Assembly (NCBI RefSeq): GCF_003334355.1
Contig: NZ_QOWP01000001.1
Direction: 5' to 3' (one strand)
DNA: 64,000 bases
Source: Escherichia coli
GTDB lineage: Bacteria > Pseudomonadota > Gammaproteobacteria > Enterobacterales > Enterobacteriaceae
The notes beneath the pieces were generated by a model, which was given only the letters and a program-made list of their open reading frames with translations, was not told the origin of the DNA and did no database searches. Position 1 is the first letter of the stretch. Each line of letters starts with the position of its first letter. Position numbers and translations under genes: made by a program. Below are positions 3 to 58,400 of this stretch, piece by piece.

Positions 3-854
3 TATTACCCCGTTACGATGTTCAGCCAGGTACGCACCCTCCCCCGTGGTTCTGCCGAAGCGCAATACTGCGAACTGGATGTGGTGCCAGGCGACCTGAA
101 CCGCTTTACGCTGACGGGATGCCTGCCACAACGTTCTGAGCCGCTCCCGTTGGCTTTTGCCGTGCAGGATGGAGCCAGCTATGCCGGTGCAATTCTGAAA
201 GATGAGTTAAAACAGGCGGGTATCACCTGGAGCGGAACACTGCTGCGCCAGACTCAGGTTAACGAACCTGGAACGGTAGTTGCCAGTAAACAGTCGGCCC
301 CGCTGCACGATCTGCTTAAGATTATGCTGAAAAAGTCGGACAACATGATCGCCGATACGGTTTTCCGCATGATAGGCCATGCGCGCTTCAATGTGCCTGG
401 AACATGGCGGGCCGGGTCGGACGCCGTGCGTCAGATCCTGCGCCAGCAAGCCGGTGTCGATATTGGAAACACCATTATTGCCGATGGTTCAGGGCTTTCG
501 CGGCATAACCTGATTGCCCCCGCCACCATGATGCAGGTGCTGCAATACATTGCCCAACACGACAATGAACTTAACTTTATCTCCATGCTGCCGCTGGCGG
601 GCTATGACGGCTCTTTGCAGTACCGTGCAGGTCTGCATCAGGCGGGCGTGGATGGAAAAGTCTCAGCGAAAACCGGTTCGTTGCAGGGGGTATATAACCT
701 GGCGGGATTCATTACCACAGCGAGCGGGCAACGAATGGCGTTTGTGCAATATCTTTCTGGCTATGCAGTAGAACCTGCGGATCAGCGTAATCGCCGTATT
801 CCGTTAGTGCGTTTTGAAAGCCGTTTGTATAAAGATATTTATCAGAACAATTAG
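3..854 (+). CDS. dacB: D-alanyl-D-alanine carboxypeptidase/endopeptidase PBP4, C-terminal part (5' end lies outside the window)
   Basis: Open frame runs from the window edge to TAG at 852-854; translation ends ...RFESRLYKDIYQNN, matching the remembered PBP4 C-terminus. Track ORF 18..854 is only the first in-frame Met. Confidence 0.9.
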   Translation, partial: YYPVTMFSQVRTLPRGSAEAQYCELDVVPGDLNRFTLTGCLPQRSEPLPLAFAVQDGASYAGAILKDELKQAGITWSGTLLRQTQVNEPGTVVASKQSAPLHDLLKIMLKKSDNMIADTVFRMIGHARFNVPGTWRAGSDAVRQILRQQAGVDIGNTIIADGSGLSRHNLIAPATMMQVLQYIAQHDNELNFISMLPLAGYDGSLQYRAGLHQAGVDGKVSAKTGSLQGVYNLAGFITTASGQRMAFVQYLSGYAVEPADQRNRRIPLVRFESRLYKDIYQNN

Positions 855-917: not shown

Positions 918-1015
<98 letters not shown>

Positions 1016-1039
1016 TGATTTGGCGTTTATCATCAGTGA

Positions 1040-2227
<1,188 letters not shown>

Positions 2228-5693: not shown

Positions 5694-6953
<1,260 letters not shown>

Positions 6954-21034: not shown

Positions 21035-21155
21035 GTGCGGCCTGAAAAACAGTGCTGTGCCCTTGTAACTCATCATAATAATTTACGGCGCAGCCAAGTT
21101 TTCCCTGGTGTTGGCGCAGTATTCGCGCACCCCGGTCTAGCCGGGGTCATTTTTT
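21035..21155 (+). ncRNA. arcZ: ArcZ small regulatory RNA (SraH/RyhA)
   Basis: Sequence gtgcggcctgaaaaacagtgctgtgccc...ggtgttggcgcagtattcgcgcaccccggtctagccggggtcatttttt matches ArcZ as I remember it, including the 3' seed and the intrinsic terminator; it overlaps the arcB stop convergently. Confidence 0.9.
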
Positions 21156-23483
21156 AGTGGCTTTTGCCACCCACGCTTTCAGCACTTCTACGTCGTGACG
21201 CCACTCTTCTTTCATCTCTTCAATCCATTCACCGACGTTATCTTCCCAGGCCGGAAGGTCAGGAGACTGAATTTGCTGACCCAGCTGTTGCAGATGGCGT
21301 AACCCCACTGACCCCGCCGCACCTTTAATTTTATGTCCTTCCTCAACAATGCCTTTTTTATCCTGCGCCGTCAGATTCGACTCCAGCACGCTGACATAGC
21401 CCGGCATCATCTTCTCAAACACCGCTAACCCGTCGGTGATCAGCTTCGGTCCTACAAGTTCGAGATACTGTTCCAGCATGGGAATATCGAGCAATGCTTC
21501 TGATTTACTGTTCTCTTCTGTCGTCACCGTACTCTCCTCATCATCCAGGGTATCCCAGAATTTCTTGATCATCGCGGTTAGCGCCGGAACAGAAAGCGGC
21601 TTACTCAGCACATCATCCATTCCAGCATTGAGGTACTCTTGTTTGTCTTTCAGCACGTTAGCGGTTAAGGCCACCAGCGGCGGTAAATCCTCGCGCGGAT
21701 AACGTTTCGTCAGTTCACGAGAGATATCCAGCCCGGTCATATCTGGCAACTGAATATCCAGCAACACCAGGTCGTATTCGCCCGGTTTAAACATCTCCAG
21801 CGCCGCCTTGCCGGTCATGGCGACATCAACGCTGTTACCTAATTTTTCCAGCACAGAACGCGCAACAATCACGTTCAGTTCAATGTCTTCCACCAGCAGC
21901 ACATTCAGCGCCGGTAAAGGCATATCGTCTTCATCAAACGCATCATCGACCTCTTCTGCTACCGACGGTGCGTGGATCGTCAACGTAAAGGTTGAACCTT
22001 TGCCCTGTTCGCTGGTAACCGTAATATCGCCGCCCATATTTTTCGCCAGACGACGAGAAACGGCCAGACCAATACCGGTGCCGGTGGCAGGTTTACCGCC
22101 ATGACTGTCTTTCACCTGGTAATACATGGCGAAAATTTTATCCAGCTCATCCTGCGGAATGCCGATACCAGAGTCTTCCACTTCAAAATGCAGCATATCG
22201 CCTTCATCGTAGCGCACGCGCACGGTAACCTGGCCTTGCTGGGTGAATTTGACGGCGTTACTGATGAGGTTCCACAGGATCTGCCGTAAACGCGTCCCGT
22301 CGGTAATGACCTGATGCGGTAATGGCAGCGTCGGCTCCAGGTTAAAGCGCAATCCTTTTTGTTGCGCCTGCAATGCGGAGAGATTTTCCAGATCGGCAAG
22401 GAAGCTGGTGAAATCAACCGGTTGATTATCAAGCTGGACCTTGCGCCGTTCCATCTTATCCATGTCGATAATATCGTTAAAGATATTCCCCAGCGTGACG
22501 GCCGAAACATGGATGGTCTTGAGATATTTTTCCTGCTCGGCGGTGAGTTCGGTATCCAGCAGAATGCGGCTCAGACCGACGATACCGTTCAGCGGTGTAC
22601 GCAATTCGTGACTGATGGTGGAGATAAACGTCGTTTTGTCGCGGCTGGCCCGTTCAAGCGCATCCTGATACCGCTTACGCTCGGTAATGTCGCGACCAAA
22701 GCCCATCAAACCGTGACGTTTACCCACGCGGTCGTAGTACGGCACTTTACGGATTTCAAAGCAGGCTTTGCGCCCGTCCGGGTAATCCAGCCACTGTTCA
22801 TAGGTCAGTGACACATTATGACGGAACACTTTTTCATCGGTTTCAATGACTTTTGCGGCGGCTTCCGGTGAGTAAACATCAGCAGGTTTCAGGTGAATCA
22901 GTTGTTTTTCGCTTTTTCCGGTCAGCAGCTCCATCGCGCGGTTACAGCCGGAAAACTCTTTATCTTCGTTACGATAAAAAACCAGGTCGGGTGAAGCATC
23001 AAGGAAGGAACGTAAGAATGAGGATTGCTGCTCGAGCTGAATTTGTGTCTCTTCGCGCTCTTTGATTTCAATTTTCAGTTGGCCGAAGGTTTCCTGCAGT
23101 TCTGCTTCCGCTTTTTCACGAACGGCAATTTCCTGATTTAGCTGGGCAATATTATCTTTTAACTGAACGTTGAGGCTCAAATCGCGCTCGCGCATCTCCT
23201 CCAGTTTTTGCACCAGCCGTGACAGACGTTGTCGTGACTCCTCCAGTTGCTCGACGACCACCGATAGAAAGTAGACCGCCCACGGCGTAATCAGCAAACC
23301 AAAGAAGATAGAACGAATAACATCAATGCTTTCGACCTGACCATGCAGCACCATGGTTACCGCCATTTGTACCACAATGGCAAGAACGACGAGGGCCAGC
23401 GCCAGCAACATTGAGAAGCGCACCAGACCTAACTTCATCATCAGGTCAACATAATACTGCGCCAGCAGACGAATTTGCTTCAT
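21147..23483 (-). CDS. arcB: Aerobic respiration control sensor kinase ArcB
   Basis: Track ORF trimmed to MKQIRLLAQYYVDLMMKLGLVRF... (778 aa) with PAS, HisKA (SHELRTPLN), receiver and HPt domains. Confidence 0.96.
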   Translation of the reverse strand: MKQIRLLAQYYVDLMMKLGLVRFSMLLALALVVLAIVVQMAVTMVLHGQVESIDVIRSIFFGLLITPWAVYFLSVVVEQLEESRQRLSRLVQKLEEMRERDLSLNVQLKDNIAQLNQEIAVREKAEAELQETFGQLKIEIKEREETQIQLEQQSSFLRSFLDASPDLVFYRNEDKEFSGCNRAMELLTGKSEKQLIHLKPADVYSPEAAAKVIETDEKVFRHNVSLTYEQWLDYPDGRKACFEIRKVPYYDRVGKRHGLMGFGRDITERKRYQDALERASRDKTTFISTISHELRTPLNGIVGLSRILLDTELTAEQEKYLKTIHVSAVTLGNIFNDIIDMDKMERRKVQLDNQPVDFTSFLADLENLSALQAQQKGLRFNLEPTLPLPHQVITDGTRLRQILWNLISNAVKFTQQGQVTVRVRYDEGDMLHFEVEDSGIGIPQDELDKIFAMYYQVKDSHGGKPATGTGIGLAVSRRLAKNMGGDITVTSEQGKGSTFTLTIHAPSVAEEVDDAFDEDDMPLPALNVLLVEDIELNVIVARSVLEKLGNSVDVAMTGKAALEMFKPGEYDLVLLDIQLPDMTGLDISRELTKRYPREDLPPLVALTANVLKDKQEYLNAGMDDVLSKPLSVPALTAMIKKFWDTLDDEESTVTTEENSKSEALLDIPMLEQYLELVGPKLITDGLAVFEKMMPGYVSVLESNLTAQDKKGIVEEGHKIKGAAGSVGLRHLQQLGQQIQSPDLPAWEDNVGEWIEEMKEEWRHDVEVLKAWVAKATKK

Positions 23484-23578: not shown

Positions 23579-24508
23579 CTACTCCGTTGGAGGTAGCCAC
23601 GGACGTCCCAGCGCCGATCCCTGTACGCCATGTTCATTCAGATAGCGATCCAGCTCGACCATTCCCGTCCATCGATTTTCGCACCACAGCGGAGCAAGCA
23701 GCGTCGGGCGACGGGCGCTGGCGGAAATGCGGTGGTAGATCACTTCCGGTGGCGTATGGCGAATCATTTCTCCGGCAGTGAGCGTGTAATCCTCCAGTTC
23801 AATACCGTTCAAACGCCCCGCTTCCCAGGCTTTCGCCATAATGCTGCCTTTCACAATATGCAGCGGATGCAGCTTTATGCCGTCCACGCCGGTTTCAACC
23901 ACTCGCTCCAGCGTTTGCAAACATTCAGCCTGCCCTTCGCCAGGCAGGCCGACAATTAAGTGGGAACACACCTTCAGCCCGCGCTGACGTGCCAGCTGGG
24001 TTGTACGCTGATAACAGGCAAAATCATGGCCGCGGTTGATGCGATGCAGTGTTTTGTCGTGGGCGGTTTGTAGCCCCAGCTCCAGCCACACTTCGTAACC
24101 CTGGTCCTTATATTCGCAAAGCAGATCCAGCACCGCATCCGGCACGCAGTCCGGGCGGGTACCAACACACAAACCGACAATATTGGCCTGGCTCACCGCC
24201 TGCTGATACATAGAACGCAGCACCTGAACTTCCGCAAAGGTGCTGGTATACGCCTGAAAGTAGGCCAGATAGCGTTTAGCACGGTTAACTAAATTCGCCT
24301 GGTGCGCCAGTTGCTCGGCAATGGAACGATGCTGCTGCGCTTCATCGGCAAACGAGGCCACATTACAGAATGTGCAGCCACCACGCCCGATGGTACCGTC
24401 ACGGTTAGGGCAGCTAAAACCGCCGTGCAGCGTCAGCTTATGCACCTTTTGCCCATAACGACGGGTGAGATCACCACCAAACATATTGACTAATTTCTGT
24501 AACTGCAT
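23579..24508 (-). CDS. yhcC: Radical SAM protein YhcC
   Basis: Track ORF trimmed to MQLQKLVNMFGGDLTRRYGQKVHKLTLHGGFSCPNRDG... (309 aa). Confidence 0.88.
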   Translation of the reverse strand: MQLQKLVNMFGGDLTRRYGQKVHKLTLHGGFSCPNRDGTIGRGGCTFCNVASFADEAQQHRSIAEQLAHQANLVNRAKRYLAYFQAYTSTFAEVQVLRSMYQQAVSQANIVGLCVGTRPDCVPDAVLDLLCEYKDQGYEVWLELGLQTAHDKTLHRINRGHDFACYQRTTQLARQRGLKVCSHLIVGLPGEGQAECLQTLERVVETGVDGIKLHPLHIVKGSIMAKAWEAGRLNGIELEDYTLTAGEMIRHTPPEVIYHRISASARRPTLLAPLWCENRWTGMVELDRYLNEHGVQGSALGRPWLPPTE

Positions 24509-53696: not shown

Positions 53697-55157
<1,461 letters not shown>

Positions 55158-55185
55158 TTAGTTACTGCAGTAGAGGATTTTTTAC

Positions 55186-55412
55186 GGCTGCCGGATGCGG
55201 CGTGAACGCCCTATCCAGCCTACGGTTATGTTCCGGTTTGTAGGCCTGATAAGACGCACAGCGTCGCATCAGGCAACGGCTGTCGGATGCGGCGTAAACG
55301 CCTTATCCGACCTACGGTTATGTTCCGTTTGTAGGCCTGATAAGACGCACAGCGTCGCATCAGGCAACGGCTGCCGGATGCGGCGTGAACGCCCTATCCG
55401 ACCTACGGTTAT
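55186..55412. repeat. BIME: cluster of about five alternating REP (PU) units
   Basis: Repeated gccggatgcggcgtgaacgcc(c/t)tatcc and tgtaggcctgataagacgcacagcgtcgcatcaggc blocks with a roughly 120-bp super-period between yhdP and tldD. Confidence 0.85.
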
Positions 55413-55480
55413 GTTCTGGCTCGTTGGCCTTTGGCAACGATTATCCTATGAGATTGGGGCAATTACGCGCCCTCGTCAAA

Positions 55481-58400
55481 TCATTGCGCTTTTTCTTTAC
55501 GCGGTTGGCGCAACACTTCGTTGATTTGCGGATCGTCCAGCGGACCCGAAATGTGATAGCGCAAAATGGAGACTTTGCTCCACAGCGGCCCCAGCACTTT
55601 ACTGGCGGCAAACACTGCCGCGCCAACAATGGGGTTAACCGCAAAAGCCGCAGCCACGCCCACCGTCGCAGAAATCTCTGGTGCGACAACCGCTTCCATA
55701 TTCAGGTCGCGACGTACCAGATTTACCGACCCTTTCATGGCGATATCCGCCTCCAGGCCATCCACCAGCGTGTCGTCGGTGTGCATAACGCCGTCTTTAA
55801 TCCACGCGGTGCTGCGAATGGAGTCAAAATAGAACCCTTCGCCAAAAGTGTCTCTGAAATCAAAACGCAGCTTACGCATCAGGGCATCTACGCTCAATAA
55901 GCGCAGCAATTGCCCGGCATGTCCGGTATTGATTTCGGTAATTTCGCCTTTACCCAGTTGAGTATGAATGATGCCATTCAACGTCGCCTCATCTGGCTGC
56001 CACGGTGCTTTACGCCAGTGTAAATCGTAATCCACATTAAATGACGACTGCCGTATGGGCGTCGTGACACCAAAAAATTCTGCGGCGGCATCAATTTTCT
56101 GCCCGCGCAGTTTTCCTTTCAGCGAGGTACGTTCATTCCCCGGATTATTAACCCATTCACCATCGGCAGTAAGCCGCGAGAAACCAGTATCAATCAGTCC
56201 ATTGGTCAGCGTTAATGTATCGCCAGAAATGGTGAGATCACTGTCAATACGACCGAATTTTTGCCCCCAGAACCAGCACTCTGCGCATCGTATTTGTGCG
56301 TTCGGCCAGCCACGGAAGTTAATGCGCTCCGTTGTCGGGAAAGGTGATGACGGCGTTGAATCACCACGAGTTTTCGCCACGCTCGGGTTGTAATAAAGAT
56401 ATTTGATATTCGCCAGCCACGGCGCGTTATTACGCATCGCCAGCGTGGCGTTGATTTCACGCCCTTGCGCCTCAACCTGGGTGCCATTTGCCGTCGGTTG
56501 CGAAACAATACTCAGGTTATTCCATTGCTGATTTCCCAGCGACAACATAGGCGTACGTAACGTTATGTGTTGTGGGAAACTCGCTGCACCACCGACACTC
56601 TCCGCCGCACCTTTCTGAAACAGGGCCAGCCACTCGGCACCATTCATCGGCGGCATATTGAGTTCAACACCACTTTGTTCCGGCAACGGCGGGAGCGTTT
56701 TACTGTCTGCCGCCCAAATAGCACGGTCGAGCGTCAGCTTTTGACCGAGCAACCAGCGGCTATTGAAATGGTTATCCGCACCAGCCTGTCCGGTTAAATC
56801 AAAGCTGTTGAGATTGCCATCAACCTTAACGTTTACCGGCAGTGGTTCACCCGCAGGTTTGGCTAACGGTGAAGGTAAGTGACTGCTCACATTCTTCAAA
56901 TCGCCGTTTAGCTCTACGTTATACGTCGCGCCAGCATGATAAGGCAGAACAATGCCCACTTTACCATCCCACGCCACGCTGCCACTCAATGCTTCGTTCA
57001 CCGCTGCAGGCAGAACGCCGGTTTTCGCCGGTTGCCAGTTACCGTTGAGGTTTACCGCTACCTGGTAGGCTTTTGCCCCTTCTTTGGTGGAAAAATCCAC
57101 GTTCAACGGCTGATTAAACCAGCTTGCTGTCAGTGGTTCACTTTGCAGATCGCCATTGATAAAGCTGAATTTACCGCTCAAATTTTTCAGGGTGCTGGCG
57201 AGTGGTTTGATAAACAGACTGTTATTACGCAGCGTCACTTCACCTTTCGCGGTTACCAGCTCGCCGTTCAGCGGGATATCAAGATGTAAGCGAGCATTCA
57301 CATCGCCGTCGAGCTGGAGTTCTTGCAGGGTCGCACCCAGAGAATCTTTCAGCGGTGTCTCATCAAAGTAAGGGCCAACGGCTTTACCCGGACCTTTAAT
57401 GTCAGCGTCAATCAGCAGTTTTTCTTTTGAGTAGTCAGGGATCACTGCGGTAAGATTACTCGCGCGCACGCCGCCCAGATTAACGCCATCGGTTTTCATC
57501 CATAAACCGTCGTTAATAAAGTCCAGTTCAATATCAAGGTTAGTTAATGCAGGCCAGTCCGGCTGGAAGGCAAACTTCGCGTTGCGCAGCGGCACCAGCA
57601 CTTCAAACTGACCTTCGTTGTGTTTATAGGGGAAGAGTTGCGGATTGCCACCATAAACCAGCGTCGCGTTATCCGCTTCACCGCCCTGAATCGCGCCACT
57701 TAAGTAATCAACCAGGTCTTTACCCATCAAGTTTTCCGGGAAATAGCGCCAGGCTTGTGAACCATCATCGGTACTGATGCCAGCCAGAATACCCAGCCAG
57801 GGTTCATCGTTAGCAGGTTGCAGGTAACGAAAACCGCCGCGCGCATGGACGGCTTTGGCTTTAACGTCAATATTACGCCCATCCAGCTGGAAACCTTTGT
57901 TATTGTTCAGCCAGCTTATAGTTGCCTGGCCGTCGGCGATTTCTAGTGGCGCACGGAATACCGTTTCGTAAGGCATCTTTGCCTGCTTCATCGACGCGGT
58001 AAGCAAACCATTTTCAACGCTGCCGGAAAGCGTCCCGGAGAAGTGTTCCGCACCCGGTAATAATTTCCATTGCTTCCAGGCCAGATCGCTCCACGATGCC
58101 TGAAAACGGGTCTTGTCTGCCGCCTGAAGCGGGATATCCAGCGCCAGAGTGTTAATCTTGCCGCTCGGTTGTGTGGAGCGCCAAACATCACCCAGTGCAG
58201 GTGAAAGTTTCGCGGCCAGCGGGCGTATGCCCTCCAGGCCTGCCAGCTCCAGATTACTGGCGCGAATCCGGAGTTCGTCACTGCGTTTATTGTCTTTGCC
58301 GCCAACGTCCTGTTCCGGTATCCAGGCCAGCGTCAATGCTCCGCTCGGCCAGGGTTTGCCGTCCATCGTGATCCGTGTATCGGGAATAGAGAACTGCCAG

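Follow-up and report, generated by a model that had tools for sequence, protein, structure and literature searches.

A strain-variable BIME-2 array between yhdP and tldD of Escherichia coli, at a published gyrase cleavage hotspot

The DNA analysed here, hereafter the window, is a 64,000-nt stretch of Escherichia coli (RefSeq assembly GCF_003334355.1, contig NZ_QOWP01000001.1), and the locus of interest is the spacer between tldD and yhdP. Both genes run in the same direction on the minus strand and are separated by 338 bp (55143-55480). Their names had already been put forward in an earlier, sequence-only reading of the window, and are correct according to NCBIfam scores and to RefSeq annotation in matching genomes. 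The main features of the locus are the following:

53697-55142, minus strand: tldD, the downstream gene (NCBIfam, 1061 bits; RefSeq annotation in matching genomes)
55190-55406: array of five REP palindromes
55418-55437, minus-strand RNA: small hairpin (GUUGCCAAAGGCCAAC) in unique spacer sequence, between the first REP and the yhdP stop codon
55481-59281, minus strand: yhdP, the upstream gene (NCBIfam, 2171 bits; RefSeq annotation in matching genomes)

The array is entirely extragenic, lying between the ATG of tldD and the stop of yhdP. The distance to the nearest REP is 47 nt from the tldD ATG and 74 nt from the yhdP stop codon (55481-55483). The small hairpin lacks a U-run and has no known role; it is also present in the one-, five- and seven-unit alleles whose spacer was read.

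The array comprises three Y and two Z2 units in the order Y-Z2-Y-Z2-Y, with alternating orientation. A REP-consensus pattern search recovers exactly the five units that the sequence-only reading had counted, the span it had assigned to them (55186-55412) brackets the array, and the alternation it had described is confirmed by the opposite orientation of Y and Z2. In the list below, each REP unit is assigned to the strand that carries GTAG ahead of the stem:

55190-55223, minus strand: REP unit 1, Y type (plus-strand sequence GCCGGATGCGGCGTGAACGCCCTATCCAGCCTAC), two mismatches to the Y consensus
55224-55239: linker of 16 nt between the GTAG ends of Y unit 1 and Z2, GGTTATGTTCCGGTTT
55240-55274, plus strand: REP unit 2, Z2 type (GTAGGCCTGATAAGACGCACAGCGTCGCATCAGGC), aligning to the Z2 half of Rfam naRNA4
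55275-55281: linker of 7 nt between the far ends of Z2 and Y, AACGGCT
55282-55315, minus strand: REP unit 3, Y type (GTCGGATGCGGCGTAAACGCCTTATCCGACCTAC), a Y consensus match
55316-55330: linker of 15 nt between units 3 and 4, GGTTATGTTCCGTTT
55331-55365, plus strand: REP unit 4, Z2 type, identical in sequence to unit 2
55366-55372: linker of 7 nt between units 4 and 5, AACGGCT
55373-55406, minus strand: REP unit 5, Y type (GCCGGATGCGGCGTGAACGCCCTATCCGACCTAC), a Y consensus match

Linker lengths thus run 16, 7, 15 and 7 nt, the long kind reading GGTTATGTTCCG(G)TTT and the short kind AACGGCT. The Y units differ from the 34-nt Y consensus at two to three positions, where shuffled sequence leads one to expect no match at all; in 100 shuffles of the window, neither the Y nor the Z2 pattern occurred. 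The absence of mismatches in the Z2 units is circular, as the Z2 search pattern was derived from the window itself, and their identity therefore rests on the Rfam naRNA4 model and on a published table of BIME-2 elements.

One period of the repeat consists of a Y unit, a linker of 15-16 nt, a Z2 unit and a linker of 7 nt, adding up to 91-92 bp. Tandem Repeats Finder reports a period of 91 with 2.7 copies over 55184-55430, and the start-to-start spacings are 92 and 91 bp; the super-period of roughly 120 bp proposed in the earlier reading is consequently wrong. The repeat search reported no inverted repeats, although the units are palindromic and neighbouring units are inverted, which we take to be an effect of the tool's threshold. 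When a 501-nt query covering the array locus was searched against other genomes, it matched at a median of 8 places per genome, as expected of a highly repeated sequence.

Individual units are 34-35 nt long (n=5) and fold with predicted energies of -14.9 to -20.2 kcal/mol, values equalled by 0-5 of 200 shuffles. A GTAG stands at the foot of all five units: the Y units end in CCTAC on the plus strand (GTAGG on the minus strand) and the Z2 units begin with GTAGG on the plus strand. In each of the ten folds, an internal loop (1x1 or 2x2) separates the outer from the inner stem. These traits are those of REP elements, imperfect palindromes of 30-40 nt whose stem contains a mismatch and has a conserved GTAG at its foot, and which fall into three types, y, z1 and z2 (Ton-Hoang et al., PMC3333891). 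Two kinds of composite are distinguished: BIME-1 is a single y-z1 pair whose long L linker often includes an IHF site, while BIME-2 is a tandem of y and z2 with short linkers and a strain-variable copy number (PMC3333891).

The yhdP-tldD array is a BIME-2, and displays every feature of that class that can be tested on sequence. The assignment follows from the alternation of Y and Z2, linkers of 7 and 15-16 nt, the GTAG motifs, the internal loops and the lack of an IHF site. In line with this, the Z2 halves can be aligned with the corresponding hairpin of Rfam naRNA4, a model built from REP325, which is itself a Y/Z2 BIME-2, and the tldD-yhdP locus is entered under 'BIMEs2' in table DS3 of a genome-wide gyrase study (PMC6379681). 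The BIME call of the sequence-only reading is thus right and can be narrowed to BIME-2 from unit types, linkers and the published table. The same reading had also named the array as an IHF target; IHF binding is, however, a BIME-1 trait, and no match to the IHF consensus WATCAANNNNTTR was found in 55143-55480.

BIME-1 (RIB/RIP) resembles the array in being built from inverted REP palindromes that include a Y unit, and differs in being a single-copy Y plus Z1 with a long L linker, where the array is a tandem of Y and Z2 with short linkers. We discarded a BIME-1 reading of the locus on these grounds: the partner of Y is Z2 (35 nt), the linkers measure 7-16 nt, the IHF consensus is missing and the copies are in tandem. 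An element that looks like BIME-1/RIB on sequence does occur elsewhere in the window, within a second REP cluster, and REP-like matches outside the array begin at 918, 987, 6052 and 24131:

918-1016: second REP cluster, between convergent open reading frames at 18-854 (plus strand) and 1040-2212 (minus strand)
6052-6064, plus strand: match to the REP 5' half (GCCGGATGCGGCG), no mismatch
21035-21142, plus strand: ArcZ sRNA gene (Rfam RF00081, 118.7 bits)
24131-24143, minus strand: match to the REP 5' half (GCCGGATGCGGCG), one mismatch

In the second cluster, a Y unit (918-951) is joined through a linker of 34 nt to a short Z1-like unit at about 985-1016 (minus strand), and this linker contains an IHF-like site, ATTCAACATATTG, one mismatch away from WATCAANNNNTTR. 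The matches at 6052-6064 and 24131-24143 are probably lone REPs. Besides naRNA4, ArcZ is the only Rfam family above threshold in the window. As a side observation, the window contains 9 matches to the IHF core consensus WATCAANNNNTTR where 2.3 would be expected, and no shuffle attained 9; the site at 22412-22427, AATCAACCGGTTGATT, is perfectly palindromic and fits the consensus on either strand.

The BIME class was defined around 1990, and the array described here is an ordinary, already described E. coli BIME-2 at a published locus. A further relationship is that with the REPIN/RAYT system, in which the transposase is TnpA-REP, an IS200/IS605-like Y1 enzyme. In this regard, GTAG and the stem mismatch, both of which TnpA-REP requires in order to bind and cleave, are preserved in all five units; in K-12 the gene for TnpA-REP is located elsewhere in the chromosome (PMC3333891). 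The locus departs from that system in that its changes in copy number are in-register, and slippage or homologous recombination can explain them as well.

The variation in question was followed in 5426 complete E. coli genomes, queried with real or synthetic arrays of 3, 5, 7, 9 and 11 units between identical flanks. Alleles were counted as genomes with at least 80% coverage of the query, together with the spans of the matches listed:

1 unit (a single Y), 155-bp spacer: about 3569 genomes (66%), that is, 3580 minus the 11 with three units
3 units, 410-bp match span: 11 genomes
5 units, 501-bp match span: at least 107 genomes
7 units, 429-bp spacer: about 1670-1680 genomes (31%), including MG1655 and DH1
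9 units, 683-bp match span: about 19 genomes, with an exact nine-unit array

Roughly 40-50 of the 5426 genomes are left unclassified, and the five-unit class includes additional variant alleles, such as that of strain 48. Only odd unit numbers (1, 3, 5, 7 and 9) were seen. No genome with 11 units ranked first with the synthetic 11-unit query, for which heavily overlapping query pieces were not joined. These counts bear out the earlier suggestion that the size of this BIME varies between strains. Alleles differ by whole 91-bp Y-Z2 modules, and synthetic arrays in which one internal 91-bp module was removed or doubled match the real three- and nine-unit alleles at 100% identity. As about 66% of the genomes hold a single Y unit, a multi-unit array is unnecessary for the function of yhdP or tldD.

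K-12 MG1655 and W3110 carry their array at the same locus as the window, with the same flanks, Y and Z2 units and linkers, and differ in carrying seven units in 429 bp, as against five in 338 bp; the window corresponds to their allele minus one internal 91-bp Y-Z2 module. The K-12 strain GM4792 matches the 501-nt query of the window at 100%. A K-12 origin of the window, considered on the strength of that match, was nonetheless rejected, since its flanking genes (aaeA to yhdP) are 98.5-98.8% identical to those of MG1655. The sole genome with a yhdP identical to that of the window, PSS-12, carries seven units; where yhdP is 99.8% identical, 2022CK-00450 has one unit and several others have seven. 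Because identical or nearly identical yhdP alleles go along with different unit numbers, array length evidently changes fast relative to point mutation.

Discord of this kind extends to laboratory strains. Among K-12 assemblies, five units are found in EMG2, WG1, GM4792, MC1061 and 'MG1655-pvir', seven in MG1655 and DH1, and nine in XL1-Blue, TOP10, Stbl4 and Origami2; among B assemblies, BL21(RP) has five units, and BL21(DE3), Rosetta2 and BL21-RIPL have nine. Several of these assemblies bear neighbouring accession numbers and probably share a submitter, and an artefact of the assembly pipeline is as plausible a source of the discord as real instability.

The array gains and loses whole 91-92-bp Y-Z2 modules, likely by slippage or by unequal recombination between direct repeats, of which in-register gain and loss of modules is the signature. 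TnpA-REP is possibly an agent of such change too, given that it recombines BIMEs in vitro (PMC3333891).

At the RNA level, a consensus scan detected no sigma-70-like promoter in 54900-55800, and a terminator scan of the same interval gave one terminator-like site, located inside tldD, with no intrinsic terminator in the spacer. Since both genes lie on the minus strand, only 47 nt separate the array from the tldD ATG and neither promoter nor terminator was found between the genes, the array is most likely transcribed as the 3' region of yhdP or as part of a yhdP-tldD read-through. The minus-strand RNA of the spacer has a predicted folding energy of -144.6 kcal/mol (z = -7.7 against shuffles), and the individual hairpins are predicted at -18.7 to -20.2 kcal/mol each, taking the minus strand for Y: -20.2 for unit 2 (Z2), -18.8 for unit 3, -19.2 for unit 1 (-14.9 on the plus strand) and -18.7 for unit 5 (-15.1 on the plus strand). 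Two variable stem positions of the outer Y units form G-U pairs in the minus-strand RNA and C-A mismatches in the plus-strand RNA, and this gives the hairpins of units 1 and 5 an extra 3.6-4.3 kcal/mol of stability in the transcribed sense. Resting on two positions of a folding model, this bias is a hint that the hairpins may be favoured in the transcribed sense.

Transcription of yhdP would then continue through the array on the minus strand and yield five stable hairpins, which would shield the yhdP mRNA lying upstream against 3'-5' degradation and would partly attenuate read-through into tldD. REP effects on translation termination depend on closeness to the stop codon; as the nearest REP is 74 nt away from that of yhdP, a direct effect on yhdP termination seems unlikely. 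The dual role of stabiliser and attenuator proposed here is modelled on REP325, located between the tandem genes yjdM and yjdN, which acts as a partly Rho-dependent attenuator and as a stabiliser of the upstream message (preprint 10.64898/2026.03.23.713779). According to the same preprint, gene pairs in tandem with a REP between them generally show a bias of expression toward the upstream gene, and REP effects on mRNA depend on context and are not uniform.

The comparison with REP325 also bears on two matches to Rfam naRNA4 within the array and, together with two open reading frames, on how the locus should be annotated:

55243-55312, minus strand: Y-Z2 pair of units 3 and 2, Rfam RF02564 naRNA4, 77.3 bits (gathering score 59.5)
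55334-55403, minus strand: Y-Z2 pair of units 5 and 4, Rfam RF02564 naRNA4, 71.1 bits (gathering score 59.5)
55195-55524, plus strand: open reading frame of 109 amino acids, running through the array and antisense into yhdP
55385-55900, plus strand: open reading frame of 171 amino acids, running through the array and antisense into yhdP

On the plus strand, the naRNA4 scores (55.8 and 50.8) stay below the threshold of 59.5. The tldD-yhdP array and REP325, the yjdM-yjdN BIME-2 that specifies naRNA1-6, have in common a tandem of Y and Z2, co-directional flanking genes and two RNA hairpins per pair; REP325 differs in having six pairs, a Y-Z2 linker of 13 nt, against 7 nt here, and a longer period.

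What the array does at the RNA and DNA level can be explained in other ways, and we consider these against the evidence at hand. It is improbable, in our judgement, that the array is a cluster of naRNA4-like genes, each Y-Z2 pair giving an RNA of about 70 nt that binds HU, bridges DNA cruciforms and condenses the nucleoid. Two pairs do exceed the RF02564 gathering score, both on the strand of the flanking genes (minus), and DNA homologous to REP325 may share its role (Qian et al. 2015, PMC4550694). RF02564 was, however, seeded from REP325, so that a match only restates membership in BIME-2 and is no proof of an sRNA gene, and the linker is here 6 nt shorter than that of the model. Moreover, deletion or overexpression of REP325/naRNA4 does not compact the nucleoid, and REP-REP contacts are absent (preprint 10.64898/2026.03.23.713779); this preprint has an author, Sankar Adhya, in common with the 2015 naRNA4 paper (PMC4550694), and the nucleoid role is disputed even for the founding member. 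More improbable still is a Rho-independent terminator that would end the yhdP transcription unit. Five GC-rich hairpins 3' of a stop codon are suggestive of one, yet none of the five is followed by a U-run, the terminator scan came out empty in the spacer and the array ends only 47 nt short of the tldD ATG, with no promoter-like site in that gap. As for the frames at 55195-55524 and 55385-55900, both are open in the window, and we see next to no chance that either encodes a protein: array length changes in steps of 91-92 bp, no multiple of three, which would shift the frame; most genomes are devoid of most of the sequence, about 66% of all genomes carrying just one of the five units; the seven RefSeq records examined show no CDS at this place; and both frames run antisense into yhdP. 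Non-triplet steps, absence from most genomes and the empty RefSeq records likewise sustain the statement, made from the letters alone, that such frames are artefacts.

A different kind of alternative regards the array as selfish or slippage-prone DNA, neutral in function, whose cleavage and hairpins are by-products with no effect on fitness or on yhdP and tldD expression. The genome survey speaks in its favour, inasmuch as one to nine units occur among otherwise similar genomes, yhdP alleles 100% or 99.8% identical to that of the window come with seven units or one, and two thirds of the genomes manage with a single unit. Against it stand the rank of tldD-yhdP as the strongest gyrase-cleaved BIME-2 of a published map (PMC6379681) and the general observation that REP arrays between tandem genes measurably shift the expression of upstream and downstream genes. 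Neutrality is not a matter that sequence alone can judge, and on this balance we hold it to be possible but rather unlikely.

The gyrase evidence comes from a 2019 genome-wide cleavage map of E. coli W3110 at single-nucleotide resolution (Sutormin et al., PMC6379681), in which the tldD-yhdP BIME-2 houses multiple cleavage sites and is named as a hotspot. Cleavage is much more frequent in Y than in Z2 units, and blocking transcription raises the signal instead of lowering it (PMC6379681). In table DS3 of that study the array measures 307 bp, the seven-unit allele, and among all 263 BIME-2 intervals it accounts for 35 of 104 sites with ciprofloxacin (Cfx), 13 of 56 with rifampicin plus ciprofloxacin (RifCfx), 3 of 8 with microcin B17 (MccB17) and 10 of 55 with oxolinic acid (Oxo), site counts that read mapping within a tandem repeat may distort. 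It is by far the top row of the table, the next Cfx counts being 11 for eco-mqo and 8 for aceA-aceK (PMC6379681). The targeting by gyrase that had been attributed to the array from sequence is accordingly documented for the locus itself, in its seven-unit K-12 allele (PMC6379681). By analogy, the DNA of the five-unit allele, with three Y units against four, would also be a preferred site of gyrase binding and cleavage, mainly at its Y units.

In the same table, the 582-bp BIME-2 interval 4331603-4332185 has no Cfx site (PMC6379681 DS3); we presume it to be REP325, going by length and position alone. As REP325 shares the unit types and nevertheless has no Cfx site, BIME-2 status alone does not make a gyrase hotspot. 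The tldD-yhdP array and the presumed REP325 differ in linker length and period.

Another circumstance of the locus concerns tldD itself. Together with TldE/PmbA, its product acts in the maturation of microcin B17, which poisons gyrase, and breaks down the antidote CcdA. Since tldD encodes part of the protease behind a gyrase poison, its expression could conceivably be linked to gyrase activity at the array. That tldD adjoins the strongest BIME-2 gyrase cleavage site is, as an observation, a coincidence, with no evidence of a functional link.

Together, our findings make it very probable that the yhdP-tldD spacer holds a BIME-2, which probably acts as gyrase-site DNA, as a source of RNA hairpins and as a repeat that changes by modules. 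A bolder idea is that the array is a fast-changing, strain-variable strong gyrase site whose module number tunes local supercoiling and the yhdP:tldD expression ratio; we give it little credence. If it were true, how many gyrase sites and RNA hairpins a strain has at the locus would be set by gain or loss of the 91-bp module.

In practical terms, neither the open reading frames nor the naRNA4 matches across the array merit annotation as genes, and the spacer, whose length varies from 155 to 520 bp, is a polymorphic marker that carries a risk of mis-assembly and may be of use in typing. For the biology of BIME-2 elements in E. coli, the locus raises the question of why one third of BIME-2 cleavage with Cfx takes place at tldD-yhdP and almost none at REP325.
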